Source: a virus. From it: DNA of 40,086 bases. Positions 6,434 to 40,028 of the stretch are shown here, in pieces. The position numbers and the translations under genes are program-made. Each line of letters begins with the position of its first letter. Positions within the stretch are counted from its first letter, which is position 1. The stretch lies in the UHGV virus genome UHGV-0038373; one strand, 5' to 3'. The notes under the pieces are model-generated. The model was not told the origin of the DNA. It made no database searches and saw nothing but the letters and a program-made list of their open reading frames with translations.

Positions 6434-6671
6434 AGGACGGTGTAGAAGTTAACTGGGACGAATCTTTAGAATCACTAAATAAATTATATAATTCATACAT
6501 GGAAGGTGGTTGGACCGTTAATGATGTTAGCGAAGCTGACTACCTTCTTTTATTGGAATTATTTAGTGATAATACTAAAGAGAAAAAAGAAGAGAAACAA
6601 GACCCATTAGCATTTTTTGGCACTGTCCTATCACCAACAGACCTAGCAAAAGCAAAAGGAGAGATTGAATA
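6433..6671 (+). CDS. gpT-like extension reached by a -1 programmed frameshift from gpG (G-T fusion)
   Basis: The -1 frame is open from 6411 to the TAA at 6669-6671, which overlaps the TMP ATG (TAATG). The only possible slip window is 6411-6433 (..GAU UCA AAG GAA GCC UAG). A plausible one-tRNA slip at A AAG (6421-6424). Confidence 0.5.
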
Positions 6672-9600
6672 ATGGTAGATAAGGTTATTGGCAATATGAA
6701 GTTTGGTATTGGTGTTGACGGTGTAGACCAGACCATTAATACATTAGACAAATTAAACAAGTCAATTAAACAGCAAGAATCAGCAATGAAAGCCAATTTA
6801 TCAGTGTTTGATAAATCAGGACAAAGTATTGAGAAACTGCAACAAAAAGAAAAAGACTTGGCAACAGCTACTGACTTACAAGGTAAGAAAGTGGAATTAT
6901 TAAGCAAAAAGCGTCAAGACGCTATTGCAAAATATGGTGAAGAATCAAACCAAGTTAAAACACTAACAACACAGCTAAACAATGCTAGTGCCAAATACAA
7001 CGGAATGCAAAAAGATTTGCAAAAAACTACAGCTGATGTTATCAAGTTTGAGAATGGTTTAGACAAACTAGGTCAAGAAATTAAAGATAACGCAAAAGAC
7101 TTCCAAACACAAGCCAATGCAATGGATAAAGCTGGCGACAAAATGGGTGCTTTGGAAACAAAACAAGCTGGTTTAAAACGTCAATCTGACCTAACTAAAC
7201 AGGCTATTGCTGGTCAAGAAAACGCAATCCAACAGTTAACACAAAAGTTTGGTAAAAATTCAACAGAAGTTAGCAAAGCTGAACAAGAGTTACAAGGCTT
7301 TAAAAAGCAATTAAACAATACAGACAGTGAACTAGATTCAGTATCTAAAGGAATGCAAGAACTAGGTAAATCAAGCGGTGAAACTAGCGAAGGTTTAGGA
7401 TTAGCAAGTAAAGGACTACAAGGTTTAGTTGCTGGTGTTGGTATGGCGGTAGCTACCAAAGCAATTGATATGATTAGTGACGCTGTTTCAGAAGTTGTTG
7501 AAAATATTAATGCTGGTATTGAAGCGGTTGACAAATTCAAAGGCGCATTTGATTGGGACGCAGAGAGCGCCCAAGCTGTTTCAAGGTTAGCTAACCAATT
7601 AGTTGCAGAAGGTTATTCAGACGACATCAACGAAGTAGCAGAAGCAATGATACGTGTTCAAAATGTAATGGGTGCTGAGGGCATGGATGACGACATGCTA
7701 CAACGCATGACACGTAATGCAATCGCATTTTCTAAAAATACTGGTGCAGACGTGAACGAAACTATTCGTGGCATTGGTAAAATGATGACCAACTTTGGTA
7801 TTGACGCAGACCATGCTTGGGACTTAATGGCACGTGGCGCACAGATGGGACTTGACCAAACAGACGAACTAGGCGACAACATGGCTGAATACTCACAGAT
7901 TTTTGGTCAAGCTGGTTTCACAGCAGAACAAACATTTGACATGTTACAAAGTGGTTTAGATGGTGGAGCATACAACTTAGACAAAGTCAATGACTTAATC
8001 AAAGAAATGGCTATTTCATTAACAGATGGTCGTTTTGAAGACAACATAGGTATGTTCAGCGGTCAAACACAAGAGTTGTTTAGACAATGGCAACAAGGAG
8101 GAGCAACACAAGCGGATGTTATCCGTTCAATGATTAGCGACTTTGGAGGTATGGAAAACCAATATGAAGCACTAAACAAAGCTGGGACAATCTGGTCCGC
8201 ATTAGGTGAAGATAACTCACTACAAGTTATCAGGTCATTAAACAATACATCAATGGCATATGACAATGTAGAAGGCGCACAAGACGCAATGAACAACGCA
8301 ATGAGCAACACAACTGGAATGGACGCTTTTAAGTCCTCATTGAGGGCTGTTGGGAATGAAATAGGTATATCCTTAAATCCAATGTTTGGTAAGGCGGCAG
8401 ATGCTATTACAAACTTTACAGAAAAAATTCTACCAAAGATAGAACCAGCATTAAAAAAAATGTGGGAGTATGCAGGTCCTATTCTTGAAAAACTGGGTGG
8501 ATATTTAAGCACCAGCTTTGAGGTTGTTGGTGACATTATGGGTACAGTTGTTAAATATGTTAGCGAGGAACTACTACCTACTCTAATGCCTAAGATTCAA
8601 GAACTAGGAGATAAGTTGGGTGGATTATTTGATAAGATAAGCAAGTTCTGGGATGAACATGGCGAGACCATACTATCTGGTCTTAGTTTCTGGCTAGAGA
8701 AACTAACTCCATTATTTGGTTTAGCGCTGGAGGTTGTAATTGGTTTTGTGGATGCCGCTATCGGTTTAGTGGATGGTTTTTTCAAGATTATTGAAGGATT
8801 GACTGATGTTTTTGAAGGTATATTCAACGGAGATTGGGGTAGAATATGGGAAGGTATTAAAAAAATATTCTGGGGGGCTATTCAAGTTATTTGGAATTGG
8901 ATAAACCTATCATTCTTTGGTAAAATATTAAGCGGTGCAGCTGGTTTTGGAACCATATTTAAAAAAGGTATGTCTACAATGTGGGCTGCAGTCAAAGGAT
9001 TCTTTTCAAAAGGTATAACTGGCATAATTGATGACGTGTGGCGGTGGTTCAGTAGGGTTACAGGCATTGGTGGTAACTTAAAAAGTGGACTTACAGGTAC
9101 TATGAAAACCCTATGGGGTGATATAAAAGGGGTATTCAGCCGTGGTATTGACACCATTGTACGTTGGTTTACTAGTTTGCCAGAACGTTTAGGCAGTGCA
9201 ATTAGTAGGGGCGCAGGTCATGTTACTGGTGCATTTAAAGGTATTTTCAATAAGGTATTGAGTGCAATTGGCGGTCCAGTAAATGGTATCATTGGTGGTG
9301 CTAACTGGGTGTTAGAAAAGTTTGGCGCACCTCAAATTTCAAAATGGGACGTACCACAATATGCAAACGGTACTGACGGACACATAGGCGGACCTATGGT
9401 TGTAAATGACGGCGGTGGTGCTGAAATGGTAATTGCACCAAACGGTCAAGCAATGATTCCAAAAGGTAGAAACGTTATGATGAATGCACCAGCTGGCACA
9501 CAAGTACTAAATGCCAAAGAAACATCAATGGTATTAGGACAAAAAGGGCGCATTCCATTTTATAAAAAAGGAACTGGTTTCATGGACGGTGTTCGCAACA

Positions 9601-17299: not shown

Positions 17300-19591
17300 T
17301 TAGTCAATATAATTTTTAACTTCAACTGGTTTGAACCCTTGTAATTCTCGTTCATGATGTGCTTGTTCAATACGTTCTTTCCAATTTTCACCGAACCATA
17401 GTTCAAGTGTATCTTCTACTTGGTCAATATAGTATTGTTTGTCAACTTCATCAATTGTAATACCTTCGCCAATCGCTTCATTACTGATTGTGTAGTATTC
17501 TGGTGCGTTTGCCAGTCCTTTTGTATATGAAATGTTATCCTTAAATTCATCTGCTTCAATATCTAATAATTGACCTTCTTTGACCTTAAACAATTCTACT
17601 GCATTAGTTTTGTCTTTTACTGCGAATACACGGTTAACCTTTTGTGCGTTGAACTCATTACCTTCACTATCACGTGCAACCGTTCTATCAAAGGTCCAGC
17701 CTGTTTTAGTAATAATTTGAAACTGTCTTAGTTCATTACATTCATTGATAAACTCTTTATAATCTTTACCAGCTACCAGATAATTAATGAACGCATTTGA
17801 TACAATCGCTTTTGATACTTTCATACCACCTGTTAAGCCAATAGCACCTTTTACTTTTACTTTTCCATTTGGTTGTACTGCAATATAATTATTTACATCT
17901 TTTTGCCAAATTTCACGGAACATGTCTTTATCTAGTGTAAGTCCAATCTTGTTAGCAAATTCATCTAATGCTTCATCAATACCTTTATCATCTGCTTCAC
18001 TGTTTGGAATATATGCGTGTGCGTCCGTATTTGATTGAATAAACTGTGCTTTACCTTTAATCAATTCATACATGTTTGTCATAATCAATTGACCAGTGGC
18101 ACAAACTAAGAATTGGTTTCTTGGGTCATATAAACCATTAAACTGCGCACCAGTGGCACCAAACTTAGTATTCAATGGTAACTTGATACCGTTAATCATT
18201 ACATATGTTGGTACCTCTACACCTTTAATGTTTGCCACTTCTTCACCTGAATACTTGGCGTCCATACGTTGTTTTAGTAAATCACCGTAGCGGTGAATCT
18301 TATCCTTTGGAATATTTCTTGATAGTAAATTAAATTGTTCCATTGTGTTTGGATATAGTGAACCCCAGTCACGCATTGGGAACATTCCAATGTGAATGTA
18401 ACTAGCTTTAGCACCATGTACACCACCACTACCAAAAATCATTGTATAACCATCTTCATCTGTGTACTCTAATGACACATTCAATTTACCATCTTCATTT
18501 AATTCAAACTCATGGTTCAAGTATGCTTCTGCAATCTCTTTTGTATTAATATTTAATCGTTTATCTAATTCTAATGGGTCTGTCAAGTCTGGTCTAACTT
18601 CTTGTTTAGTTGCACCAAGTAACTTAGCTGTTAAGTTAGCATTTGTTTGTAATAGGTCTGTCTTATCCATGTCAAACATTAGAGCAATTGTTGCTTTAGC
18701 CAATAACATACCAATGTTTTGTTCAAAACGTTTTTCAGTTGCTAACACATCATTTTTACAGTATGCAATATTTTTCTCTTTCTCTTCATCTGTCAATGGT
18801 CTATCCATGTCAAAATCCACTTCTGTTTCTTTAATGTTGATACCTAAGAATGCTGAATGCTCTTTTAAGCTAAAGCCTTTGTTATCTTGGTATAGGTCCA
18901 TGCCAAACAATGGTGTTTTATGACTATCAAACATCTTGTACACTAGACCTCTATTATCTGATTCAATAATTGTCTTAGACATCTGATAAGCGTTTTTGTC
19001 TTGTAAATATCCACGCATTACATTGTTGTCATATGACGCATTATTATAGCCAATAAACATTGAATCACGGTATTCAAGATAAAACTTGCGTAATTCGTCA
19101 AGGTTATTATTAATGATAAACCATTCTTTGGTAAAGTAATCACGAAATACAAATAAGCTATCATGTTTAAAAATCTCAATATCAAATAATAAAATGGTTT
19201 GCTTTGTCAATGGTTCACTAGGTTTAAATGGTGTTCCATTACCTTTTGAAATACTTCTAATAGGTTTGACTGTAGCAAAACCATTGCTAAATTTCAAGTC
19301 AATTAATAAACGGTCACCAACTTCAACATTTTTCCATTTATCCCAGTCATATTTGCGAAACTTCATGATGTAGCTTGTAACGTCCCTACCATCTTCTAAT
19401 GATCGCATTTTAACTACCTTCATTTCTTTTCCTTTTGCTGATAACTTTTTGGTAGATTCAAAGACAACCACATCATGTTGACCAGCTCTCATTGGGTCAA
19501 GACTTCGTGAATTACCTTTTAAATTGCTGAATACCTCCAATAATTTTTCAGCTAGTTCTGGTGCCTTTTTAAATTCTGCAATGTTCTTCAT
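17300..19591 (-). CDS. family B DNA polymerase (3'-5' exonuclease plus polymerase domains) with an approximately 130-aa N-terminal extension of unknown function
   Basis: Exo I 'LLFDIEIF', Exo II 'YNNASYDNNVMRGYL', Exo III 'YCKNDVLAT'. Pol motif A 'DWGSLYPNTM', motif B 'KLPLNTKFGATG', motif C region 'IQSNTDAHAY'. Confidence 0.75.
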   Translation of the reverse strand: MKNIAEFKKAPELAEKLLEVFSNLKGNSRSLDPMRAGQHDVVVFESTKKLSAKGKEMKVVKMRSLEDGRDVTSYIMKFRKYDWDKWKNVEVGDRLLIDLKFSNGFATVKPIRSISKGNGTPFKPSEPLTKQTILLFDIEIFKHDSLFVFRDYFTKEWFIINNNLDELRKFYLEYRDSMFIGYNNASYDNNVMRGYLQDKNAYQMSKTIIESDNRGLVYKMFDSHKTPLFGMDLYQDNKGFSLKEHSAFLGINIKETEVDFDMDRPLTDEEKEKNIAYCKNDVLATEKRFEQNIGMLLAKATIALMFDMDKTDLLQTNANLTAKLLGATKQEVRPDLTDPLELDKRLNINTKEIAEAYLNHEFELNEDGKLNVSLEYTDEDGYTMIFGSGGVHGAKASYIHIGMFPMRDWGSLYPNTMEQFNLLSRNIPKDKIHRYGDLLKQRMDAKYSGEEVANIKGVEVPTYVMINGIKLPLNTKFGATGAQFNGLYDPRNQFLVCATGQLIMTNMYELIKGKAQFIQSNTDAHAYIPNSEADDKGIDEALDEFANKIGLTLDKDMFREIWQKDVNNYIAVQPNGKVKVKGAIGLTGGMKVSKAIVSNAFINYLVAGKDYKEFINECNELRQFQIITKTGWTFDRTVARDSEGNEFNAQKVNRVFAVKDKTNAVELFKVKEGQLLDIEADEFKDNISYTKGLANAPEYYTISNEAIGEGITIDEVDKQYYIDQVEDTLELWFGENWKERIEQAHHERELQGFKPVEVKNYID

Positions 19592-24301: not shown

Positions 24302-25022
24302 CACCAATTCTTCCTTTAGCAATATTATAATAAGTTTCATCTAATTCAATACCAATGAAATTTCTATTTGTGTTTTTACATGCAATACCTGTTGAACCAC
24401 TACCCATTGTAAAATCAAGTATAGTATCCCCTTCATTAGTATAACTCTTTACCAACCATTCTAGTAAATCAACTGGTTTCTGTGTTGGGTGTACTCTTGA
24501 CTTACCTTCAGGATAGTTATATTGTCTAACTGTCTTTGGATACCTAACACCTTTGTTTGCATGTGGTGTCATGTAGCCACTACCTGTTATCTTGGTATTA
24601 CTGATGTTTCCATCACGTTTGTATGGTGTACCTTCATCCATTTGAGGATTATAGGTTGCCTGTTTCTTATAAAACACTGATATATTCTCATGGTTTGTTA
24701 TTGGTTTTCGTTTAGCACACATAAAATCAACACCTTTTTGTTTTTCCCAAATAATCTCATATCTAAATTCATCAATATTACTCATATTTAAAAAGCTAGA
24801 AAATGGTTGTTTACCAAACAATAGTGTAGGGGTATTATCATTTCTCTTTAACTTATTTATTCTATCCCACACCTCATTAAATGGAATAATATTATCCCAT
24901 TTGAAATCCTTCTTGTTTAAAATACCATATGGTGGGTCTGTAATAATACAATCAACCTTTATACCTTCGCTGATTAATTTATCCATAATTTCTAATGCGT
25001 CACCGTTATATAATTTATTCAT
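24288..25022 (-). CDS. DNA methyltransferase, beta class (N6-adenine or N4-cytosine), orphan
   Basis: N-terminal 'MNKLYNGDALEIM' and motif IV 'DPPY' precede motif I 'LDFTMGSGSTGIAC'. No adjacent restriction endonuclease. Probable start at the internal ATG (track ORF 24288-25064). Confidence 0.8.
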   Translation of the reverse strand: MNKLYNGDALEIMDKLISEGIKVDCIITDPPYGILNKKDFKWDNIIPFNEVWDRINKLKRNDNTPTLLFGKQPFSSFLNMSNIDEFRYEIIWEKQKGVDFMCAKRKPITNHENISVFYKKQATYNPQMDEGTPYKRDGNISNTKITGSGYMTPHANKGVRYPKTVRQYNYPEGKSRVHPTQKPVDLLEWLVKSYTNEGDTILDFTMGSGSTGIACKNTNRNFIGIELDETYYNIAKGRIGDDNE

Positions 25023-25758
25023 CTTTTGCCATTCTCCGTTCTTCTCGTTTTTTAACTGAATCATAGGTGCGTTTTAACTCTGTTCCGTCAAGAGGTGGGT
25101 TGCACCCAATTTGGTTTACATATTGTGACCATACCCACACTTCTTCATGTTCTAAGCCTGTAGCAAACAACTTACCAATCATTTGCGTTATCCAGTTGTT
25201 TCGTCCTCCTTCATCACTTCCAGCGATAATATCACCTAATAGGTTTGCAGTCCATTTGCGTTCACGTTTTTTGTTTTGCTTTTGAATTGTTTTATCTGTG
25301 AAAATATCAAACCATTTTGGAGGTAGGTCTGCAATTTGTGAATTGTCAATCACTTCATATTTTACACCTTCAATTGTTGAACCCCACCCAACAACATAGC
25401 GTCCATGTGTTTGGAAGTCAACACCTTCAAGTTCCTTATGGTTTTGAATGAATTGAACATCATTATATTTTTCAGGTAGCTTGTAATACATGTGAAGTCC
25501 ACCACTTGGTGTCATAACTGTTTTAGTGTCTGGTAACTCAATATCATACTTTTCGCAAAACTCTTTAAGGTTATCAGCACCACTAACACCATTATGTGTG
25601 TCAATATCAATCACTGCAATACCTGAAATTTTACCAGTTAGGATACCATAGTTACCGCCCTCTGCAACCCATTTTTTTACTTCTGCTTTATCTTCACCAT
25701 TGAAAGCATTTGCTTTATATGGTGCTTTTCCGTTTTTTCTAAGTCTTAATAGTTCCAT
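25015..25758 (-). CDS. primase-polymerase (Prim-Pol N-terminal domain) plus PriCT_1 primase C-terminal domain
   Basis: 'GIAVIDIDTH' and 'GGLHMYY' motifs of bifunctional Prim-Pol. C-terminal 'GGRNNWITQMIGKLFATG...EEVWVW' PriCT_1-like region. Confidence 0.75.
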   Translation of the reverse strand: MELLRLRKNGKAPYKANAFNGEDKAEVKKWVAEGGNYGILTGKISGIAVIDIDTHNGVSGADNLKEFCEKYDIELPDTKTVMTPSGGLHMYYKLPEKYNDVQFIQNHKELEGVDFQTHGRYVVGWGSTIEGVKYEVIDNSQIADLPPKWFDIFTDKTIQKQNKKRERKWTANLLGDIIAGSDEGGRNNWITQMIGKLFATGLEHEEVWVWSQYVNQIGCNPPLDGTELKRTYDSVKKREERRMAKDE

Positions 25759-25988: not shown

Positions 25989-27284
25989 TCATTTTAAAAT
26001 ATCCTCCATCATTTCATTAGTAAAGTCTTTTCCATTTGTTACTGTTTCAAAAATCTTTTTCTCTGTTGGTGTTTCAGGCAAAATATGGTAGTACATAGGT
26101 GTCTTAGTTTGACCATAACGGTCTGTGCGTGCCTTGGATTGTTCATAATTGATTGATTCTAAAGGCATTGAATTGTAAATTGTCACATTCGCAATAACAA
26201 AGTCATTAATACCTGTAGAGGCTGATTTGTAGTGTGCTAGCACAACTCCGTTGTCTTTACCTTTAAATGCCTTTAAGTCTTTGCTAGCACCGTTATATTG
26301 GCTATATGGGCGTTTTAACTTGTCTAATACTTGTTTCAACATTTCAACTTCTACATTGTAATTATAAAATATAACTATTCGTTCATCATTGTGTGTTTCA
26401 ATAATCTGGTTCAGTCGTTCAAATGGTTCTTTACTTACCTGTTTATTGATTCCTAACAAGAAACCATGTGACACACAACGCATTGCATTAAATAGTTTAC
26501 TACTATTATCTAATTCAATAACTTCACCGTTATCAGCTTTGTACATGCGGTTCTTTTTCAATTTAGCGTACATTGCTGGCTTCTTAGTCTTTAATACATA
26601 ATCTTCTGGGAAGTAGTCTTTATCACGCTTAAAACGAACAGCAACACTATTTATCATATCATTTAATAAATGCTCGTTCTGATACCCAACAATTTGCATG
26701 AATCTCATTGAACCCATTTGGCGCATTTGCTTAATAACAAATAGTTCTTCAAACTCTTTTTTAGGCTTGCGGAATACATTAAGCATATATAGTTGTGGAT
26801 AATAATTTTCAAGTTTTCCATTACTAACTGGTGTTGCTGTTAATAGTCTAACATACTTGGTTTTCTTTGTCAACTTCATTACAAACTTGGTAACATTAGA
26901 ACTTGTTACACCAACTTTGTGCGCTTCATCAATAATTATAAATGTGTCTTTATCAACCCACTTCAATAATTCAGTGATACGCCAAACACTTTCAAAACTG
27001 ATTGCCACTTTATCTGATTCAGCTAATAACACTTTGTTTTTCTTTGTTCCTTTATTTAGTGGTGTAATAGCAATATCCATCAATGCACCATCTTCTCCAA
27101 AGTCTGCAACCTTAGGTGCTAAACAGATAACTAATAACTTACTGCACCCAGATTGCAGGTAGGCACCTAATGCAGTGAATGTCTTACCTGTTCCAGCATC
27201 TGATAAATCGTAAGGGTGTGTATTCCATTTCTTAATACCTTCAACTTGTGTTGGTAATAATTCAATTTTTCCAATCTTAGTCAT
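25989..27284 (-). CDS. DEAH-box / SNF2-like superfamily-2 helicase
   Basis: Walker A 'DAGTGKT', DEAH box 'IIIDEAHKV', C-terminal helicase domain. Likely start MTKIGK at 27284 with a GGAGG RBS (track ORF extends to 27374). Confidence 0.75.
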   Translation of the reverse strand: MTKIGKIELLPTQVEGIKKWNTHPYDLSDAGTGKTFTALGAYLQSGCSKLLVICLAPKVADFGEDGALMDIAITPLNKGTKKNKVLLAESDKVAISFESVWRITELLKWVDKDTFIIIDEAHKVGVTSSNVTKFVMKLTKKTKYVRLLTATPVSNGKLENYYPQLYMLNVFRKPKKEFEELFVIKQMRQMGSMRFMQIVGYQNEHLLNDMINSVAVRFKRDKDYFPEDYVLKTKKPAMYAKLKKNRMYKADNGEVIELDNSSKLFNAMRCVSHGFLLGINKQVSKEPFERLNQIIETHNDERIVIFYNYNVEVEMLKQVLDKLKRPYSQYNGASKDLKAFKGKDNGVVLAHYKSASTGINDFVIANVTIYNSMPLESINYEQSKARTDRYGQTKTPMYYHILPETPTEKKIFETVTNGKDFTNEMMEDILK

Positions 27285-27666
27285 ACCACACCTCCAACTT
27301 GTCATCTGCAATATCTGGTAAATCTGGTTGTTCATAATTGAAATAAATATCATCTGCACCATAGTACACTGCACTTTCCATGTTATCCAAATAAAGTAAT
27401 AGGTCCTCTAAATCGTCAAGCGTATCTCTTAATAGTAAACCATATCCACCAGCACATCTAACCTCTTGTAAATATCTAATCTGTAATGGGTCTGGTTGGT
27501 AGTTACCTGTTTTAAGCTCTAAAGCGATATAATAGCCACTATAACACGCTTCAACATCTGCACGACCAACACGGTCATATATGCTTGCAGTATTGACGTT
27601 TACTAATGCACCTTTAGCTTTCAAATAGTCTACTACTTCTCTACTAAATTTAGATTCCTTTCCCAT
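27277..27666 (-). CDS. VRR-NUC domain nuclease
   Basis: 129 aa. 'GRADVEACYSGYYIALELKTGNYQPDPLQIRYLQEV' matches the PD-(D/E)xK VRR-NUC core. Confidence 0.65.
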   Translation of the reverse strand: MGKESKFSREVVDYLKAKGALVNVNTASIYDRVGRADVEACYSGYYIALELKTGNYQPDPLQIRYLQEVRCAGGYGLLLRDTLDDLEDLLLYLDNMESAVYYGADDIYFNYEQPDLPDIADDKLEVWYD

Positions 27667-29379: not shown

Positions 29380-30960
29380 TTAGAAAATATTATCTGTTTC
29401 AGTAAAGTTGTTAGCCCATTTGATATTGGTTAGCACATACTGTGGTTTTCCGTTAACTCGTTTTTTAACTCTGTTTAATACAATATTCTGCGATTTACGT
29501 TGTAGTTCTGGCACAAACTTGCGAGCTGAAACGGTCATTAGTCCTTCATTAACTAACATATCGTTATATGCTTCTAATAATTCGTTTGTTTGGATAAATG
29601 AGTTTTCATCTTCCACGAACTCAATTTCGTTCATGTCAATAAAGTTTGCCATTGTGTCATTTCCTTGGATAAAGGCATCACGCAATTTATTTGCATTATC
29701 ACTGGTCCAGAAGTGTCCTTTGGTTTCTCCATTTAGTCCAAATAGTACATTTCTATATTGTTGTAAACAGTAGCTGATAAACTCTGATTTTTCTTCATAT
29801 GTGAAATTCTTTGAACGTTCCAGCCACATTGAATCTGTTGGGTTATCTCTTCCCATAGTCTTGTTAAATGGTAATGTGATAATACGGCGCAAAAAACCAT
29901 GTGAGGTGTCTGAAAACGTAGGCATGTTATTAGTTGTGAAAATCATTAGTGCGTAGTTCGTAAATGTGAACTTGTTAATACCTTTGTACTCTGCACTCAT
30001 AACGTCATTACCTGATAATGTTTTCAGTGTACCTGTTTGTTTAATATGCTGTGCTGGCATATCTGTTTCAATATTCACCATTTTACCAAATAATTGAGAG
30101 CTTGCGAATTTGTCATTATTACCTGACAAGCTAGCTAGTGTTGCATGACTTGTATTTGATTTTCCTACTAGTTCCTCAATAAATGCCATAACGTGAGATT
30201 TACCGTTACTACCTTCACCAGTTGCGAATACCATTGCTTGTGGGTCTTGGTTGCGGTATAAAATACGTCCAATCAATTGGAAAAGTGTTTTTGCGTCCTC
30301 TTCTAAAATATACTCAATCCATTCAGCAACGATATTGTGCTTAGGGTTCTCAATATAATCATATTCAATTCTTGTTGTTTGGTAGTCCTCTTTCACAGTT
30401 GGCTTTAATGTGTCCTCTTTAAAGCGATATGTGCCATTTTTAAAGGCTATTTTGTTTGGGTCCATTTTGTCATTAAATGGTAAGTTAGCACCAGAAGCAA
30501 GCGCATTTTTTGCCATTCTTTGGACTGCATTTCTAAATTGGTTAGCAACCTTTGCATTTTCTGCATAATGTGGTGTGTAGACCATCATAAATTCATTGTA
30601 AAGCTTTTGCCATAAACGAGCTTCTAAATTGTCCTCTGATACCTCATAAATTTTTGTGTCATGGTTGTAAACCACTGGTAAACCAATTGTGGAGCTGGCA
30701 TGAACAGGTAATACCTTAGCCATGTGAACTGCCAAGGCTTCTGCGTTTAAGCCGTCATAACTTGGTTCTGGTCGTTGTGGTTCTGCATTCTTAGCCGCAT
30801 CTCCATTTTTGAAGTCAACTTCCCACTCCTTGTGGTCCTTTTCGTAGTCTGATAATGCTTTCATATATTGCTTGCTAGGTGTCAAAGTCTTTTCAAGCGT
30901 GCTGATAAAACTTAATTCAACTGGTTGGTCATATTCAACTTTTTGTAATTCATTTACCAT
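29380..30960 (-). CDS. D5/P4-type primase-helicase (D5_N-like region, SF3 helicase with Walker A GEGSNGKS, P4-type C-terminal DNA-binding domain)
   Basis: 'FATGEGSNGKSHV' P-loop. C-terminal '...SARKFVPELQRKSQNIVLNRVKKRVNGKPQYVLTNIKW'. Confidence 0.75.
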   Translation of the reverse strand: MVNELQKVEYDQPVELSFISTLEKTLTPSKQYMKALSDYEKDHKEWEVDFKNGDAAKNAEPQRPEPSYDGLNAEALAVHMAKVLPVHASSTIGLPVVYNHDTKIYEVSEDNLEARLWQKLYNEFMMVYTPHYAENAKVANQFRNAVQRMAKNALASGANLPFNDKMDPNKIAFKNGTYRFKEDTLKPTVKEDYQTTRIEYDYIENPKHNIVAEWIEYILEEDAKTLFQLIGRILYRNQDPQAMVFATGEGSNGKSHVMAFIEELVGKSNTSHATLASLSGNNDKFASSQLFGKMVNIETDMPAQHIKQTGTLKTLSGNDVMSAEYKGINKFTFTNYALMIFTTNNMPTFSDTSHGFLRRIITLPFNKTMGRDNPTDSMWLERSKNFTYEEKSEFISYCLQQYRNVLFGLNGETKGHFWTSDNANKLRDAFIQGNDTMANFIDMNEIEFVEDENSFIQTNELLEAYNDMLVNEGLMTVSARKFVPELQRKSQNIVLNRVKKRVNGKPQYVLTNIKWANNFTETDNIF

Positions 30961-33213: not shown

Positions 33214-33606
33214 TTATTCTTCCTCCTTAAATAATTCATTATATAATTCTTGAATTCCTTCACGTTTTACTTTTAACATTGCAATCTGTGCTGATATTAT
33301 ATTACTTGGCTTTCCTATCAAATTTCCTGATAAGCGATTAATATCCTTATTATATTGAACAAGTGTTCGCTGGAATACACCTCTAATCGTAGTTCGTTCA
33401 TCAATATTAACCAGCTTAAATTTTGAATCCCAAAATTCATTTAGGGTTTTTTCTAAGTTAAATAGGTTTGGTGCATACTCTGGTACCTCACCATCATTGT
33501 CTATAATACCATAGCCAAGCGCATTTTTAATAATGTCATACTCTTTGCCTTCTGTGAAAAATGGTTCTTGTGGGTCTGCTTTTGTGCATTTCATTGTGTA
33601 TTTCAT
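33214..33606 (-). CDS. early protein carrying the shared 'GKEY.I...YGIIDNDG' domain (130 aa)
   Basis: 'TEGKEYDIIKNALGYGIIDNDGEVPEY' matches the domain seen in 32065, 34074 and 34461. Confidence 0.4.
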   Translation of the reverse strand: MKYTMKCTKADPQEPFFTEGKEYDIIKNALGYGIIDNDGEVPEYAPNLFNLEKTLNEFWDSKFKLVNIDERTTIRGVFQRTLVQYNKDINRLSGNLIGKPSNIISAQIAMLKVKREGIQELYNELFKEEE

Positions 33607-33792
33607 TTATGCTTCCTCCCATTCTTGTACTTCATATCGTTGTTCATAATTAATGAAGAAGTCTGATGGGTTTCTGAAATATACATCTTGTGCTAATGCT
33701 TTTTCCATTGTCTTTCTCCATGTATTACCTGCTGCAACGTTTGTCAATGTTTCTTTGTCAACTACTACATATATTGTCATTTCATTTCCTCC

Positions 33793-33999
33793 TTATAGAA
33801 TATCGTCAAATACTATAGCATAGCAAAGATAAATCATTATTACAACAATTAGAATCATAGAATAGATACCATAAATAATGTATAATATAGAAACAAAAAT
33901 TACAGCTATCTTAAAAATCATTAGTGGTAAGCATAGGATAGTTAATACACTAAAAATTAACCATACTACTATCATAATACGTATAATTTTATCAATCAT
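33793..33999 (-). CDS. very hydrophobic small membrane protein (68 aa)
   Basis: Two or three TM helices. Immediately downstream of palindromic promoter copy 3. Confidence 0.35.
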   Translation of the reverse strand: MIDKIIRIMIVVWLIFSVLTILCLPLMIFKIAVIFVSILYIIYGIYSMILIVVIMIYLCYAIVFDDIL

Positions 34000-34024
34000 T
34001 TTAATTCCTCCAATTTGTTTGTTG

Positions 34025-34059
34025 TTATCTTATGTACCTACTATACCATCAGATATAGT
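34025..34059 (-). promoter_or_regulatory. promoter with palindromic operator, copy 3 (TTGACA-N17-TATAGT; ACCTACTATA-N8-TATAGTAGGT)
   Basis: 45 bp identical to the 32027-32070 element. Confidence 0.65.
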
Positions 34060-34073
34060 AGGTGTCAAGTGTT

Positions 34074-34460
34074 TTATTCAAATTCTTTGATACTTTCAAT
34101 AAGGTTGTTAAGTTTGCGTGCCTTTTTGCTTAAGTTAATTGCCTGTTGCTCCAAGCGGTCACGCTTTTTGAATAAGTGTTCTGCTTCCGTTGTTAGTGAG
34201 TCAATTTTAGCTTGTACACTAGACTTCAAGTCTATAGTTGTTTTAAAAGTTGGTGTTTCTTCTTTTTCAACTAATTCATATTGTCTTTCTGAAATGAAAT
34301 AGTATGGATATTCATCATTTAAATAAATATAGCAATTATCAGTTAAAGGACTCTTATATTCTACAATTTTATATGTTTTACCAATTTCTAAACCAAGTCT
34401 TTTGTCAATGTTATGTGGTCCTAAATATTTTGTAATTTTAGCATATTTATATTTTTTCAT
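34074..34460 (-). CDS. early protein, paralogue B of 32065-32472
   Basis: See paralogue A. Confidence 0.45.
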   Translation of the reverse strand: MKKYKYAKITKYLGPHNIDKRLGLEIGKTYKIVEYKSPLTDNCYIYLNDEYPYYFISERQYELVEKEETPTFKTTIDLKSSVQAKIDSLTTEAEHLFKKRDRLEQQAINLSKKARKLNNLIESIKEFE

Positions 34461-34937
34461 TTATTTTTCCTCCTCTACAATTTCAAATGTTACTTGTGCT
34501 TTTTTATTATTTAAACCATTTAGGATAGTACTATAAGTGTCACGTTTATCACCGTCATTATCATAAATATAATATGGTCCAAGTTTATCAACATCTAACT
34601 TACTTACTGATTTTATAACTTTATACTCTTTCCCTGTGGTCCACCATGAAACGTTAAGCTCATCATTGCAAAGTAATCTCATTCCTTCGTATAAATCTTC
34701 TTCTGTGTATTCCATTTCTTTTTCCTCCTTAATTAGTAGTTTAATATGTTTGTTGTCTATAATATACATCCCAATGACTTCATTGTCAAGATATTTGACT
34801 AATGTTTTATAGACTGGTTCATATTGAATATATGCTCCACGTGATTCCATTTCAAAACTTAGTGGTGTCGTTGTTGCGAAAACCAGTGTGATTTTTAGGT
34901 CATTGCTGATAATGTTAATCATATCTCTTAATTTCAT
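34461..34937 (-). CDS. early protein with the C-terminal shared 'GKEYKVIK...YYIYDNDGD' domain (158 aa)
   Basis: C-terminal region aligns with the N-terminal domain of the paralogue pair. Confidence 0.4.
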   Translation of the reverse strand: MKLRDMINIISNDLKITLVFATTTPLSFEMESRGAYIQYEPVYKTLVKYLDNEVIGMYIIDNKHIKLLIKEEKEMEYTEEDLYEGMRLLCNDELNVSWWTTGKEYKVIKSVSKLDVDKLGPYYIYDNDGDKRDTYSTILNGLNNKKAQVTFEIVEEEK

Positions 34938-35359
34938 ATTGTTTCCTCCTTAATTAATTTTATATTCATTATTACTGATTCAGGTTTTCCATTTACACGT
35001 GCTTTAGTTTTTACTACGTGGTTTCCGTTTGACTTACATATAGAAACCAGTGTTGGTATAAACTTTCTACTTGATAATCTCATGTTACTATATTCATTGA
35101 AACTTGTCAATAGATTATACGTTATTTCTTTTGCGCCTGTTTCAAATGTAATACACTGATTTAGCCAACATACTATGTTGTACATAATGTTTTCATCTTC
35201 TGACGGCTGTTTCTTTATAATTGGTATGTTGCTTGCTTTCTCAATGTCACGCACATTCAATGTGTAAGCTTTTGTTTTGTCCGTTGCGTCAAGTGAATCA
35301 ATGTAGACTTGTAATGCGTCAAGTGTATAAAATATTTTTGTTTCGTTTTTGTTTTGCAT
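34934..35359 (-). CDS. standalone homologue of the C-terminal (P4-alpha-like, putative origin-binding) domain of the primase-helicase
   Basis: 'SSRKFIPTL...KARVNGKPESVIMNIKL' aligns with 'SARKFVPEL...KKRVNGKPQYVLTNIKW' of the 29380-30960 protein. First gene of the leftward operon, next to the iteron region. Confidence 0.5.
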   Translation of the reverse strand: MQNKNETKIFYTLDALQVYIDSLDATDKTKAYTLNVRDIEKASNIPIIKKQPSEDENIMYNIVCWLNQCITFETGAKEITYNLLTSFNEYSNMRLSSRKFIPTLVSICKSNGNHVVKTKARVNGKPESVIMNIKLIKEETI

Positions 35360-35379
35360 ATTATTTCCTCCTTATGCTG

Positions 35380-35424
35380 TGGTTTACATTTACTATAGTA
35401 AACCATGTTGATTAATTTGTCAAT
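35380..35424 (-). promoter_or_regulatory. promoter region with perfect inverted repeat TGGTTTAC-N10-GTAAACCA, copy 2
   Basis: Inverted repeat at 35380-35387 and 35398-35405. TTGACA at 35423-35418 (minus strand). Confidence 0.5.
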
Positions 35425-35515
35425 AGATTTGATTAAAAACTTTTATACTATTTTGTATCAAATTTCCTATTTGGAAATTATGGTCATTAAAACTCCCTAA
35501 ACTATGCAAAATTAT

Positions 35516-35830
35516 CATAGGTGTTCTTCATTGAAGAACAGTATTGAACCTTAGATCCACAAGGGATTGAACCAAGTGTTCTTCATTGGAGGTCTTTTTA
35601 CTACTCACATACCAGAATTATATTTTATATTATATATTTTTCTACAGATAGAGTAGAATATATGAAGAACATGAAGAACACTTATAATAAAATAAGCTAA
35701 GAATGTTGGTTTATCAACGTTTATAGGTGTTCTTCATTGGAACATTTGGTTATTTTCAATGAAGAACATGAAGAACATGAATAACATGAAGAACACCTAT
35801 AATAAAATAAGCCAAGAATATTGGTTTCAA
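35516..35830. repeat. iteron cluster: about 10 copies of ATGAAGAACA / TGTTCTTCAT in both orientations, an internal 45-bp direct repeat, and an AT-rich tract; putative origin and/or divergent control region
   Basis: Palindrome TGTTCTTCATTGAAGAACA at 35523-35541. Tandem ATGAAGAACATGAAGAACAC at 35662-35681 and 35760-35797. Two copies of GAAGAACACyTATAATAAAATAAGCyAAGAATrTTGGTTT at 35672-35712 and 35788-35829. AT-rich 35615-35650. No ORF of 60 aa or more on either strand across 35416-35910. Confidence 0.65.
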
Positions 35831-35856
35831 TGATTAATCTATTCCCTAAACTACAA

Positions 35857-35872
35857 ATAAGTATGCTATAAT
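35857..35872 (+). promoter_or_regulatory. extended -10 promoter (TGCTATAAT) for the rightward operon
   Basis: gtaTGcTATAATat, about 35 nt before the RBS of 35911. Confidence 0.45.
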
Positions 35873-35910
35873 ATAGAAGTAAAGTAAAAACATATTAGGA
35901 GGAATTAATT

Positions 35911-36111
35911 ATGAATAAAGAAGTAGGAAACATCATTGCAATTGTATTAGCAAGTATCTTGGCACTTGGTTTGTTAGCACTGAACATCTATATCCTATGG
36001 GTAATTGTAGGCGTATTGTTTGCAACAGGTCACACTGTAATCGCATGGCTAGTTATTGTTAACATTGTATTCACTGTACTATTCAAAGCAACTAAACGAG
36101 GTGATAAGTAA
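35911..36111 (+). CDS. small two-TM membrane protein (66 aa)
   Basis: AGGAGG RBS, hydrophobic. Confidence 0.4.
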   Translation: MNKEVGNIIAIVLASILALGLLALNIYILWVIVGVLFATGHTVIAWLVIVNIVFTVLFKATKRGDK

Positions 36112-36365
36112 TGGAACATGAACTATATAATAAGACAGATAAGCAGTTACTAAAGAGTAACAAGGTAGACCTAGTGGCATACATTAGAACACTGGAGTGT
36201 ACTATTAACGAGTGGGAGGTATCTAATAAAGAAGCTGGTCCAGTCATTGATACAGAGTGCAACGCAATGCAATGCACAGAATGCACAGACCAAACAGTAC
36301 CACAGTACTTGACATCATATACCTTTAGTGATACAGTAACTAAGAAAGACATGTACTCATTCTAA
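36111..36365 (+). CDS. hypothetical Cys-rich protein (84 aa)
   Basis: Coupled ATGA overlap. CNAMQCTECTDQ motif. Confidence 0.35.
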   Translation: MEHELYNKTDKQLLKSNKVDLVAYIRTLECTINEWEVSNKEAGPVIDTECNAMQCTECTDQTVPQYLTSYTFSDTVTKKDMYSF

Positions 36366-36760
36366 TGTACAAGAAGTGCAAGGTTGCTTTGTGTAGAGAA
36401 TATGTAAAGCAACCAGAGGTCTACTGTGCTAAGCACAAAGGTAATACTGCCACACAATACAACAAGTATGTGCGGACCAATCCACAGAACAAAAGGTATG
36501 CAGAGTTCTACCAGTCAAGTGAATGGAAAAGGTTAAGACAATACAAGTTAAGTATCAATCCAATGTGTGAAGTATGTGAACGCAATGACCACACCAAGAC
36601 GCTTGCCACTATCGTCCACCACATGGAGGAAATACGTACACCAATTGGTTGGGAAAAACGTTTAGATATTAATAATTTAGAATCAATTTGCCAATCCTGT
36701 CACAACAAAGAGGACCACGCTCATTCCTTTAAAAATGCAGGTAGGGGTAACAAGAAATAA
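36365..36760 (+). CDS. HNH endonuclease, terminase-associated type
   Basis: 'CEVCERN...HHMEEIR...ICQSCHNKEDH' HNH/zinc-finger motif. Located directly upstream of the putative cos region and TerS, as in HNH-dependent cos packaging systems. Confidence 0.7.
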   Translation: MYKKCKVALCREYVKQPEVYCAKHKGNTATQYNKYVRTNPQNKRYAEFYQSSEWKRLRQYKLSINPMCEVCERNDHTKTLATIVHHMEEIRTPIGWEKRLDINNLESICQSCHNKEDHAHSFKNAGRGNKK

Positions 36761-36763
36761 TTT

Positions 36764-36835
36764 CAAGGGGGATAGCGCCAAAAGGGTGGGGAGGGTAGCT
36801 GAAAATTTTAACACCCCCCGTCAAAATTTTGGTGG
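36764..36835. other. putative cos region: locally G+C-rich (GGGGGATAGCGCC...GGTGGGGAGGG...CACCCCCCG) stretch with AAAATTTT palindromes, followed by TCAAAAC(A/T)G-type repeats up to about 37030
   Basis: Strong compositional anomaly in an approximately 35% GC genome. Lies between the HNH endonuclease and TerS. Repeats GTTTCAAAACAG / GATTCAAAACTG / CTGGTTTCT(2x) lie downstream. Confidence 0.4.
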
Positions 36836-37033
36836 CTACAATCGGAGATTCCTTCTCTTCACACAAAATTCTAAAAACGAAGTTTCAAAACAGCCTTTTT
36901 CCCTCGTAAAAAACGATTCAAAACTGGTTTCTTTCCAATAATATCAAACGTTTCACGCATTGTTTCATAATCTCACTAATACGAATTTCTTCCCTCATAA
37001 ACAGCACAAAAGCTGGTTTCTCAAACAACAGTT

Positions 37034-37046
37034 TTTGTGCTATAAT
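37034..37046 (+). promoter_or_regulatory. extended -10 promoter TTTGTGCTATAAT
   Basis: Same TGTG(C/T)TATAAT box as at 10595, 12749, 38090 and 38268. Confidence 0.5.
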
Positions 37047-37099
37047 ACTATCGGGGACTTTTCTCTTAAAATAAAATGTAACGTAAAGGAGGTTGACGA

Positions 37100-37273
37100 A
37101 TGCCAGCACCAAAACCTATTATGGTAAAAGATTTGCGAACACAGCAAACAAGAGCTTTTAAATCGCAAACAGAAGCAGATAAATTTTACGGTAAAAAATC
37201 AGGTTACTTCAAAGACATTAAAACTAAACTAGGTGGCAAGAATCGCCATTATGAAATTATTGAGGTGGTATAA
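37100..37273 (+). CDS. small basic protein (57 aa, below the track cutoff)
   Basis: AAGGAGG RBS 7 nt upstream. Stop overlaps the ATG of the next gene. Confidence 0.35.
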   Translation: MPAPKPIMVKDLRTQQTRAFKSQTEADKFYGKKSGYFKDIKTKLGGKNRHYEIIEVV

Positions 37274-37608
37274 TGAGTGAACAGTGGTCAAAAATAAATG
37301 GATATGATGGATACTTAATTTCATCATATGGTAATGTAGCATACAATGACGGAACAACTAAAAAGCCACTAAAGCCATACGCAAAGGATAATGGATATTT
37401 GAATGTAGACCTATATAAGAACGGTCAAAGAACAGGTAAACGAGTTCACATCTTAGTTGCGGAAGCATTTGTAAACGGCAAACAAGATGGATACACAGTA
37501 GACCACAAAGACCGCAACAGACATAACAACAAAGCAAGTAACCTAGAATGGAAATCAGTATCAGACCAAAACAGAAATAGGAAGAGTTGGGCAAAAGGTG
37601 GTGAATAA
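37273..37608 (+). CDS. HNH homing endonuclease (NUMOD4 plus HNH_3)
   Basis: 'INGYDGYLISSYGNV' NUMOD4 motif. 'VDHKDRNRHNNKASNLEW' HNH motif. Inserted between the cos region and TerS. Confidence 0.75.
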   Translation: MSEQWSKINGYDGYLISSYGNVAYNDGTTKKPLKPYAKDNGYLNVDLYKNGQRTGKRVHILVAEAFVNGKQDGYTVDHKDRNRHNNKASNLEWKSVSDQNRNRKSWAKGGE

Positions 37609-37610
37609 AA

Positions 37611-38084
37611 ATGGGTAGACCTAGAAAATTATTAAATGCCCAAGTTGGCAACCTTACACAAGAGCAACAATACCAACGGAAAAAGGAAGAAGAAAAGCTA
37701 ATGAACTTTGAGAAGTTAGACTTTTCATATTATCCAGCTGGATTGTTGCAACAAGCATATCATGAGTGGGAACGTATCTCACACTTTATTGGTGACCTAC
37801 CAATTTCGGAACTTGACCAACAAGCAATGGTTAGGTATTGTAATTATAGTTACCTATATTCAGAAATGGCTGAACAAGTTGCATATGAAGGACCTTTGAC
37901 AGAAGATGGAAAGCTAAACCCTAAAGTAACGGCTATGAACTCTTATTCTAAGGAACTAAAAAGCGCAACAAATGACTTAGGTTTAACTATCAATTCAAGA
38001 TTGAAACTGGTAGCACCAAAAGAAGTTGAAGATGAATCAAAAGACCCACTAGGTCAATTGCTTAAAATGCGCGCACAAGGTTAA
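37611..38084 (+). CDS. terminase small subunit (P27-family-like)
   Basis: 157 aa. C-terminal '...ELKSATNDLGLTINSRLKL' motif typical of P27-family TerS. Directly upstream of TerL. Confidence 0.7.
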   Translation: MGRPRKLLNAQVGNLTQEQQYQRKKEEEKLMNFEKLDFSYYPAGLLQQAYHEWERISHFIGDLPISELDQQAMVRYCNYSYLYSEMAEQVAYEGPLTEDGKLNPKVTAMNSYSKELKSATNDLGLTINSRLKLVAPKEVEDESKDPLGQLLKMRAQG

Positions 38085-38089
38085 CATTT

Positions 38090-38100
38090 TGTGTTATAAT
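38090..38100 (+). promoter_or_regulatory. extended -10 box TGTGTTATAAT just after the TerS stop
   Basis: Sequence match to the other late promoters. Confidence 0.4.
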
Positions 38101-38177
38101 GTATTTACAAGAACACGTAACGTGGCAAAACCCCTTCCAGATTATTTGTAGATTAGAATAATATTGGGCAGTATTAT

Positions 38178-38280
38178 TCAGGCGCAAGTTTGGCAGAGCT
38201 TGCGGACATGTTGACTTAGGTAAGTTTGTTATCCCCTTTGGATAAACTCATGACCTAAGTCTTTTTATTTGTGCTATAAT
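38178..38280 (+). promoter_or_regulatory. structured TerS-TerL intergenic region: hairpins (CGCAAG..CTTGCG; GACTTAGGT..ACCTAAGTC plus T run) fused to the extended -10 promoter TTTGTGCTATAAT
   Basis: The 216-bp spacer between terS and terL contains a terminator-like stem-loop at 38212-38266, followed by TGTGCTATAAT at 38268-38280. Confidence 0.45.
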
Positions 38281-38300
38281 AGAAATAAGGAGGTATACAT

Positions 38301-40028
38301 ATGAATAATATAGATTTTGTAGCTGATTATATCAATTATATAAAAGATAATCAAATACCAATAGGTAATAAAATCAAGCAAGCAATTAGACGACATGAAA
38401 AGGACCTAGAAAAATCAAAAGACCCAGATTATCCATACTATTACGACCCAAAAGAAACCTATGAACCAGTGGCATTTATTGAAATGTTACCAGACCCAAA
38501 AAGTAAAAAGACAAATAAACTAGCTAAGTTCCAGAAGTTTATTGTAGCATTAATCTATGGTTGGCGCAAAAAGAGTAATAAAATGCGCAGATTCAGAAAA
38601 GTATATATCAGTTTAGCACGTAAAAACGGTAAATCAATTCTGGTTGCTGGTATTTCATTATATGAGTTTATATTAGGACAATATCCAAAAGCTTCAAGAC
38701 AGATTGTAGCTGGCGCAAATACTAAAGAACAAGCTGGAATTGTATTCCGTATGTTAAAATCACAGCTTAAAGCATTGAGAAATTCAAGTGATAGTGTGCG
38801 TAAAATTACTAAGGTAAACAAATATGACATTGAACATTTAGAAGATGAATCAACTGTTAAACCTTTAGCAAGTGACGCAGATAGTTTAGACGGACTAGAC
38901 GTACTTTGCGGTGTATTAGATGAATACGGAGAAGCAAAAAGCACAGCATTAATCGAAGTATTAGAAAGTTCACAGTCACAACAACCACAAGGTTTAATTT
39001 TGATTATTAGTACAACAACTAAAAATCTTAATGGACCAATGCACAGCATAGAATATCCATTTATAACTAAGCTATTAAATGAAGAGGTTGAAGCAGACGC
39101 ATACCTTGCTTTATGTTGGGAAATGGATTCAATTGCAGAAGTTGACGACCAAGCCAATTGGATAAAATCAAACCCACTGTTTGAGAATACACAATTGTAT
39201 GAAACAATGTACGAACATAAGGTTAATTCATTGGCAGAGTATAAGGCTAAGGGTGACATGAGTGGTTGGCTAACTAAAGAAATGAATTTCTGGGTACAAG
39301 CTTCACAAGATAGTTTCATGGATAAAGAAAGCTGGGACGCAATCAAAGCAACAAAAGAATATGATATTAGAAAACGTCCTGTATTTATTGGAATGGACTT
39401 ATCACGAACAAAAGATATAACAGCGGTTAGCTGGATTATACCAATTGCAGAAGAAGAGAAGTTACTTGTAAATACACATGGTTTCATTTCATCAATTGGA
39501 GGTATTGAAAAGAAAATTCAAGAGGACAAAATACCATATCGCCAATATGAAAATGAAGGTATTGTTTCAATTAGTAAGTTAGAATCAGGATTGATTGACC
39601 ACGCGGACATGTGCGACTGGATAGTTGATTTTGTTGAAACATATGATTTGGACCTACAAGGTATTTTCTATGATGGTCACCAAGCGTCACAATCAGTCTT
39701 GAGATTAGCGGAAGTTTTCGGCGAACGGTATCTAATTGAAGTACCCCAACGTATACAGTATTTAAACGCTCCTACTAAGTATCTAAGAGACGCAATATAC
39801 AAAGGTGATATAATACATCAAAACAACCCACTACTCAATACAGCGATATATAATGCGTATATGAAAGAGTTTGCGGACAACATAGCAATTGAAAAGAAAA
39901 TGAATCGCAACAAGATTGATTCATTGGACGCTTTAATAAATGCAATGAGTGAAGCAATGTATTATGACTTTGGATATTCAAGTTTTGAAAACATGTTAGA
40001 GCAAGGTACATTTGGCTTTGGTGTTTAA
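38301..40028 (+). CDS. terminase large subunit (Terminase_1-type ATPase plus nuclease)
   Basis: 575 aa. Walker A-like 'SLARKNGKS'. Typical TerL length and position. The portal follows at the start of the window (circular permutation). Confidence 0.85.
   Translation: MNNIDFVADYINYIKDNQIPIGNKIKQAIRRHEKDLEKSKDPDYPYYYDPKETYEPVAFIEMLPDPKSKKTNKLAKFQKFIVALIYGWRKKSNKMRRFRKVYISLARKNGKSILVAGISLYEFILGQYPKASRQIVAGANTKEQAGIVFRMLKSQLKALRNSSDSVRKITKVNKYDIEHLEDESTVKPLASDADSLDGLDVLCGVLDEYGEAKSTALIEVLESSQSQQPQGLILIISTTTKNLNGPMHSIEYPFITKLLNEEVEADAYLALCWEMDSIAEVDDQANWIKSNPLFENTQLYETMYEHKVNSLAEYKAKGDMSGWLTKEMNFWVQASQDSFMDKESWDAIKATKEYDIRKRPVFIGMDLSRTKDITAVSWIIPIAEEEKLLVNTHGFISSIGGIEKKIQEDKIPYRQYENEGIVSISKLESGLIDHADMCDWIVDFVETYDLDLQGIFYDGHQASQSVLRLAEVFGERYLIEVPQRIQYLNAPTKYLRDAIYKGDIIHQNNPLLNTAIYNAYMKEFADNIAIEKKMNRNKIDSLDALINAMSEAMYYDFGYSSFENMLEQGTFGFGV

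Follow-up and report, generated by a model that had tools for sequence, protein, structure and literature searches.

Co-variation of iterons with a predicted winged-helix tail of the SF3 helicase points to a probable SaPI-like replication origin in Efquatrovirus-like phages

Introduction

P4 alpha unites a primase, an SF3 helicase and a C-terminal origin-binding winged helix, and acts at ori and crr. The Rep proteins of SaPIs are self-loading SF3 helicases whose C-terminal winged helix recognises iterons, and SaPI origins have an AT-rich centre flanked by 6-12 iterons, which point in opposite directions on the two sides (PMC9371898). For Abitsa (PX867096.1), of the genus Efquatrovirus, a SaPI5-like origin has been proposed in silico (PMC13517437, Viruses 2026); according to the passages of that paper available to us, it was predicted by inspection and comprises seven 10-bp iterons around an AT-rich region near a genome end.

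We analysed a 40,086-nt stretch of viral DNA (UHGV-0038373), hereafter the window, in which a first-pass annotation had read a repeat-rich intergenic region as a putative replication origin or genetic switch. Judged from sequence comparisons, the origin reading gained support, as the layout of the repeats is conserved among relatives and the repeat class co-varies with a helicase tail predicted to be a winged helix. We consider it probable that positions 35522-35795 are the replication origin of the phage, of the SaPI/P4 type, at which a self-loading SF3 helicase would act on the iterons. This reading is solid but ordinary, such an origin having already been predicted for the genus in 2026.

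Results

Gene context of the divergent gap

The window holds, in circularly permuted form, the ~40-kb genome of an Efquatrovirus-like Enterococcus faecalis siphophage, and its closest records are vB-EfaP-1017, Haystack, KEF1 and EfaCPT1. A rightward arm (plus strand, from 35911 through the window end to ~17000) carries an HNH gene (36365-36760), a second HNH gene (37273-37608), TerS (37611-38084) and TerL (38301-40028), with the structural and lysis genes beyond them. The leftward arm (minus strand, 35359 down to 17300) holds the replication and early genes, a Dam methylase included. Among them are an SF3 helicase with D5_N and DUF5906 domains (29380-30960; Pfam PF08706 and PF19263, PHROG 864), an SNF2 helicase (25989-27374), a PrimPol/PriCT_1 primase recognised by Pfam (25015-25758), presumed to be the origin partner, and a phage DNA polymerase (17300-19591; PHROG 1252, E 3e-171), presumed to be the elongation partner. 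The 'D5-like primase-helicase' of the first-pass annotation calls for a correction: the D5_N/SF3 ATPase is there, but Pfam finds D5_N and the SF3 ATPase only, with no primase domain, and the PrimPol is encoded separately.

As had been noted, the repeats lie in the divergent intergenic region that separates the replication operon, read leftward, from the packaging/structural operon, read rightward, and the gene map confirms this position. The gap is indeed free of substantial ORFs, none in its interior exceeding 32 aa. The cumulative GC skew has its minimum at the gap, a signal that agrees with an origin there but is confounded with the direction of transcription. On the leftward side, three consecutive ORFs (158, 128 and 130 aa; 33214-34937) match separate parts of PHROG 3523 (profile length 315), which suggests a duplicated or fragmented early gene family.

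Iterons cluster at a single site

At no more than one mismatch, ATGAAGAACA occurs 18 times in the window, as compared with a mean of 5.9 in shuffled sequences (0 of 100 shuffles reached 18). Ten of these copies, eight exact and two with one mismatch, fall inside 35522-35795 (275 bp), where the background rate predicts 0.06 copies per 300 bp (Poisson P ~2e-19). An unbiased k-mer scan of the whole genome likewise ranked TGAAGAACA first, with 9 copies in 400 bp against 4 for the runner-up cluster. The same scan found no second iteron cluster in the window, and there was none after the helicase gene. The annotated count of about ten copies in both orientations therefore holds, and so do the perfect palindrome and the tandem copies described below. 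The reading of the repeat as a 10-mer holds only in part: the repeats are real, but their conserved core is the 7-nt RAGAACA, phased in tandem at 9 bp.

Three iterons lie to the left and seven to the right of an AT-rich centre (35605-35661), the inner copies being oppositely oriented. The left outer pair forms the palindrome TGTTCTTCA-T-TGAAGAACA (35522-35540; minus-strand copy at 35522-35531, plus-strand copy with one mismatch at 35531-35540) and is present in class A/B relatives. The left inner iteron (35577-35586, minus strand) faces the AT-rich centre and has a counterpart in the corresponding position of classes B and C. Right of the centre come two tandem units with a 9-bp period (35662-35680, plus strand) and an inverted iteron (35728-35737, minus strand), which makes with 35671-35687 a 17-nt inverted repeat flanking a 22-bp palindrome element. 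They are followed by an outer array of four tandem iterons, also with a 9-bp period (35759-35795, plus strand), the third of which is ATGAATAACA; in relatives, this array has 3-5 units of mixed RAGAACA variants.

A direct repeat, annotated as 45 bp, is present but 51 nt long. Its second copy (35777-35827, plus strand), which includes a second TATAAT box, is 92% identical to 35662-35712. This second copy looks like a recent duplication, because none of the seven aligned relatives of class A/B has it (Haystack, vB-EfaP-1017, EfaCPT1, L002, SZ1, L009 and L008), including two of the three closest to the window (Haystack and vB-EfaP-1017).

An exact scan of bacterial genomes for ATGAAGAACATGAAGAACA returned only unrelated chance or coding matches, none in Enterococcus, and a plasmid collection gave no match. 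Nothing in 35200-36100 reached the gathering score in an Rfam scan; the only sub-threshold matches were to plant miRNA hairpins, and are attributable to the inverted iterons.

AT-rich centre, palindromes and promoters

The AT-rich centre (35605-35661) contains the conserved block CTACAGATAGAGTAGAATAT and is a candidate DNA-unwinding element. The AT-rich tract reported earlier is a pure A/T run of 26 nt (35616-35641) between the left and right iteron sets, and only two 60-bp windows of the genome are less stable than the one at 35609. AT-richness at the centre is weaker in SZ1 and L009, both viable relatives.

Two elements other than iterons accompany the centre. The first, TTGAACCTTAGATCCACAAGGGATTGAACC, is a CCTT-N8-AAGG inverted repeat (35544-35573) conserved in class A/B, found inverted in L005 (class C) and IME-EF4, and missing in LY0322 and Nonaheksakonda. 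The second is a 22-bp palindrome of consensus AAACGTTGAT-AT-ATCAACGTTT, represented in the window by the degenerate copy AATGTTGGTT-TATCAACGTTTA (35702-35723). One or two copies of this palindrome occur in every relative examined, whatever the iteron class (seen in L030, L029 and L031, L028, L032, L036 and L018, including the distant group with 63% TerS identity), and the copy in LY0322 is nearly perfect. Its partner may come from the host or be a phage protein that is itself conserved. We also considered TTATCAACG as a DnaA box; it has two mismatches to the consensus and is better read as half of the 22-bp palindrome. No convincing DnaA box was found in the gap.

Promoters flank the iterons on both sides. 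A promoter scan identified PL, the sigma-70-type promoter of the replication/early operon (TTGACA-17-TACTAT, 10/12 matches; 35395-35423, minus strand), whose TTGTCAA block is kept in all relatives. PR, the promoter of the packaging/structural operon (35843-35872, plus strand), consists of the extended -10 TGCTATAAT (35864-35872) with a conserved TCCCTAAAC box upstream, and is nearly invariant across all iteron classes. The iterons overlap neither core promoter: 98 bp separate them from the -35 of PL, and 48 bp from the -35 position of PR.

Extended -10 sites of the form TGnTATAAT number 14 in the genome, as compared with 4.4 expected, and eight of them lie directly upstream of rightward genes (5307, 6057, 10597, 12752, 35864, 37038, 38092 and 38272, plus strand). 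This suggests that transcription of the structural arm starts at many promoters that do not depend on a -35. The TerS-TerL gap (38085-38300) contains a long hairpin, GACTTAGGT ... ACCTAAGTC (38213-38261), a T run and then the extended -10 TGCTATAAT (38272-38280), and looks like a terminator with a re-initiation promoter ahead of TerL; ACCTAAGTC repeats are found again in the relatives L001, L004, L006 and L010.

The TATAAT boxes fused to iterons, which had been highlighted in the first-pass annotation, do not bear up as meaningful promoters. They have neither a TG extension nor a -35, the first is kept only within class A/B, and the second occurs in none of seven relatives compared.

Haystack, vB-EfaP-1017 and EfaCPT1 share with the window an insert at 35436-35520 that no other aligned relative of class A/B has. 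The insert contains the palindrome AAATTTCC-TATT-TGGAAATT (35461-35480) and, at 35494, another PR-like TCCCTAAACTA box, directed into the origin.

Repeat classes at one homologous site

Comparison loci were gathered via TerS, via helicase homologues and from GenBank phage records; for the helicase we used the full-length query, a search with the tail only having returned three fragments. All compared loci share the same gap with PL and PR conserved, and the repeat inside it varies, with at least six repeat types at one homologous site, GTGACAAAA among them. RAGAACA variants occur in the window, L002, L003, L008, L009, SZ1, SHEF5, IME-EF4 and TexasRanger, and GYGTTACA (class C) in L005, EFRM31, LY0322 and vB_EfaS-271. 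Further types are GTGTTACA in L037, GTGTAACA with GTGGAACA in Nonaheksakonda and L035, GTGGTCA with GTGGACA in L038, TGGAACA in L036, and (T)AGTGACAAAA in a more distant group (L013, L018, L019 and L022).

The layout persists through these replacements. Classes A, B and C share the order and orientation '< .. < [AT] >> .. < .. >>>'; the inner iterons face apart, spaced 87-88 bp in both the window and L005, and the tandem array is on the right. Overall, over 100 phage genomes keep the layout, whatever their repeat class, and the DNA of the gap is better conserved than the flanking genes. With positions maintained and sequence replaced, the iterons behave like binding sites for a co-evolving protein. 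The class C core is not inverted relative to the window: the iteron map gives the same orientation pattern, and only the two non-iteron elements swap sides.

Several relatives depart from the common pattern. IME-EF4 and TexasRanger have, besides RAGAACA iterons and a window-type tail, seven interleaved GTGTAGACA repeats, a second family that the helicase tail leaves unexplained. The interleaved seven-copy repeat AAAAAGTGTAGACA lies within 950-1590 of the IME-EF4 locus (L028) and 6470-7101 of the TexasRanger locus (L032). A first leftward gene of 181 aa (L028:1582-2127), without Pfam hit, is shared by these two and by no other of 15 loci, and its product may be a second DNA-binding factor at the origin. 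The vB_EfaS-271 record (MT520979.1; its ends are L039 and L040) is cut within the origin at the inverted repeat …ACACTTGTA | TACAAGTGT… and misses the AT-rich centre, probably an assembly artefact caused by the symmetry of the origin. In L036 (6283-6765; ENA ERZ27276729 contig, a relative at 59% identity), the gene adjoining the repeats is that of the SF3 helicase, on the upstream side, and the two have between them none of the ~4.5 kb of small early ORFs seen in the window.

The repeat class follows the helicase tail

Between the RAGAACA and GYGTTACA classes, the helicases share 97-99% identity over residues 1-436, as compared with 56-59% over their last ~85-90 residues. All four multi-member C-terminal clusters have one repeat type each. 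In total, there are seven C-terminal clusters for six or seven repeat types, a mapping that is not strictly one to one, because the L037 tail is only 49% identical to that of class C and its repeat (GTGTTACA) is nevertheless similar.

Tails in the phage collection were of window type in 77 records and of class C in 26, with Nonaheksakonda in addition. All 24 records with a class C origin core carry a class C tail, and the 76 with a window-type core all fall outside the class C tail set; these records share ancestry, so that the independent swap events behind the counts are few. Of the two other records with a class C tail, one is partial (10 kb). The second, vB_EfaS-271, is the one further complete genome in the set, and it has class C repeats and no RAGAACA.

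Linkage alone does not explain the co-variation, because TerS, at a distance of just 2 kb, does not follow the repeat class: TerS identity to the window is 97% in L005 and 71% in L011, both of class C, and 78-79% in L008 and L009, of class B. There was no class pattern in the rightward proteins of 66 and 84 aa, in the small early ORFs or in those flanking the helicase. Small ORFs labelled 'transcriptional regulator' in relatives are 82-96% conserved through all iteron classes, and Pfam detected no DNA-binding domain in the small early ORFs or those adjacent to the helicase. The last ~85 residues of the helicase are thus the likely specificity determinant.

The first-pass annotation had also proposed the product of the first leftward gene (34934-35359, 141 aa) as an iteron binder. 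This candidate was discarded, as L002 and L003 have the same iterons but no homologue of it. It has no Pfam hit, and its lone PHROG label, 'tape measure', is misleading. Haystack and EfaCPT1 have a first leftward gene of like size in its place.

A predicted winged helix in the helicase tail

The core of the SF3 helicase matches PriRep5 of SaPI5 (PDB 7OLA; phmmer E 7e-15). The full-length AF2 model was poor in the ATPase part (mean pLDDT 63), so we used only a model of the last 157 residues, which reached a pLDDT of ~90 over its residues 70-140 and has the topology H-b-b-H-H-b-b. The top Foldseek matches against the PDB were all winged-helix DNA binders, namely RFX (1DP7, probability 1.0), PadR, Orc1/Cdc6 and P4 (1KA8), at weak E-values, none below 1e-3; the match to the P4 origin-binding domain 1KA8 was itself weak (probability 0.72, TM 0.35-0.50). 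On this modelling, the tail is predicted to be a winged helix, placing a putative iteron-specificity domain at residues ~437-526 (nt 29383-29652, minus strand).

Discussion

A probable replication origin and its rivals

The iteron gap is most likely an origin because relatives with another repeat also have another helicase tail. The enrichment of the repeats, the layout kept while their sequence changes, the adjacency of helicase and repeats in L036 and the independent proposal for Abitsa also speak for it. By analogy with described systems, we infer iteron binding, melting and origin activity as follows. The SF3 helicase (29380-30960) would read the RAGAACA iterons through its C-terminal winged helix, assemble on either side of the AT-rich centre (35605-35661), melt it and load itself. 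The PrimPol (25015-25758) would then prime, and the phage DNA polymerase (17300-19591) would elongate in both directions; the resulting concatemers would be cut later at cos, ~1 kb rightward of the origin. We count against the origin reading that 4.4 kb separate the repeats from the helicase gene and that SZ1 and L009 have no strongly AT-rich centre. The similar repeat beside a distinct tail in L037, the second repeat family of IME-EF4 and TexasRanger, the few independent swap events, the weak Foldseek E-values and the confounded GC skew weigh on the same side.

The locus might also do two things at once, being an origin at which the iteron-bound helicase modulates PL and PR or local transcripts, either as transcriptional activation or as autoregulation of the initiator. 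The origin is embedded between promoters, a conserved TTATAAT adjoins the inner iterons in class A/B, and the lineage of the window has the additional PR-like box at 35494 pointing into the origin. However, the -10-like boxes are weak and unconserved outside class A/B, and no Rfam family matched; we consider such a dual function unlikely.

Alternatively, the repeats could be transcription-factor sites that switch PL and PR between early and late expression, with no origin involved. They do lie between divergent promoters, four of them abut -10-like boxes, and the Rep proteins of plasmids are known to control their own expression through iterons. Nevertheless, the repeats stay clear of both core promoters, at the distances given above, and no other promoter of the genome has a cluster of them. 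No Cro-like, repressor-like or other HTH protein was hit in the neighbouring ORFs, the ORFs labelled as transcriptional regulators do not co-vary with the repeats, and the protein that does is the replicative helicase. The TATAAT boxes fused to iterons, lacking TG extension, -35 and conservation, do not help this reading either. Efquatrovirus is moreover reported to have no lysogeny genes, in the available passages of PMC13517437, and for a strictly lytic genus without a repressor-like gene beside the repeats the genetic switch proposed in the first-pass annotation finds no support. Taken together, pure transcription-factor sites appear quite improbable.

Recognition of the repeats by terminase, as cosB- or pac-like packaging sites, would suit the HNH, TerS and TerL genes within ~1-2 kb, but is very hard to sustain: TerS does not co-vary with repeat class, the IME-EF4 and SHEF5 records start at positions that align with ~36800-36900 of the window, ~1 kb rightward of the repeats, and the non-coding 36760-37100 has no iteron motif. 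The cos of IME-EF4 was mapped experimentally (PMC4445525) and adjoins the HNH gene in the LY0322 record. The IME-EF4 cos sequence itself (TCATCACCG plus flank) was not found in the window, whose own cos is likely, from these alignments, to lie around 36760-37100. That non-coding segment, between the HNH gene and the next genes, contains the G-rich boxes GGGGAGGGTAGC and CACCCCCCGTC.

Finally, non-functional repeats born of slippage or duplication are scarcely credible: the 35777-35827 part of the array does look recently duplicated, but a layout that over 100 phage genomes keep, whatever their repeat class, and intergenic DNA better conserved than its flanking genes speak against it.

Implications of the proposed replication origin

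The position proposed for the replication origin is well supported computationally and testable. Enterococcus phages of this group serve in therapy, and knowing the position aids engineering, the design of origin-based vectors and the reading of coverage profiles. The multi-class co-variation, in turn, offers a clean natural experiment on how self-loading SF3 helicases read origins.

A bolder proposal, which we put forward tentatively and consider rather doubtful, is that iterons and helicase tail are interchangeable modules of replicon specificity, repeatedly swapped as an unlinked pair 4-6 kb apart, and that the origin is also a regulatory hub with a second DNA-binding factor. The hub is suggested by the location of the origin within the divergent early and late promoters and by the second repeat family of the IME-EF4-type lineages, which travels with the 181-aa first gene. 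If true, at least six mutually exclusive origin specificities would exist among phages that share hosts; the modules could act like incompatibility groups, or could guard against hijacking of replication in co-infection or by satellites.

Comparison with known systems

Like P4 alpha, the window has an SF3 helicase with a C-terminal winged helix, here predicted, and iterons in both orientations. P4 iterons are of an octamer type, and the P4 origin is distant from the initiator gene, as in this phage. P4 alpha differs in having a primase domain of its own and in needing a second iteron cluster, crr; the k-mer scan of the window found no such second cluster.

Theta-plasmid origins (pPS10, R6K and RK2; PMC4980987) resemble the locus in placing repeated initiator sites beside an AT-rich unwinding element and in using an initiator that binds through winged-helix domains, which in our case are predicted; the specificity classes also recall incompatibility groups. 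However, plasmid Reps are not helicases and recruit the host DnaA, DnaB and DnaC, whereas the phage initiator would be the helicase itself.

Abitsa is congeneric with the phage of the window and, as far as the description in the available passages goes, shares with it the helicase family and the form of the origin; its predicted origin is almost certainly the homologous locus. The cos of IME-EF4, which homology places ~1 kb to the right of the repeats, fits the description in the same passages, and these contain no mention of co-variation between iterons and helicase tail or of specificity classes (PMC13517437).

The closest mechanistic parallel is with the SaPI Rep and PriRep proteins (PDB 7OLA/7OM0). 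As in these, the initiator would be an SF3 helicase, with an ATPase core matching 7OLA and a variable C-terminal winged helix, predicted in the phage, that sets iteron specificity; short iterons flank an AT-rich centre, at least two per side and in opposite orientations, and the primase is separate or fused. Sequence similarity is limited to the ATPase core. In contrast with the SaPI origin, which lies immediately downstream of rep, that of the phage is 4.4 kb upstream of the helicase gene, between early and late promoters. Its iterons are longer, with a 7-nt core in 9-bp phasing as opposed to penta- and hexanucleotides, it has the conserved 22-bp palindrome and CCTT-N8-AAGG element in addition, and its bearer is a lytic phage rather than a satellite. 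Without opening a new category, the locus would thus extend the SaPI/P4 model to a lytic siphophage.
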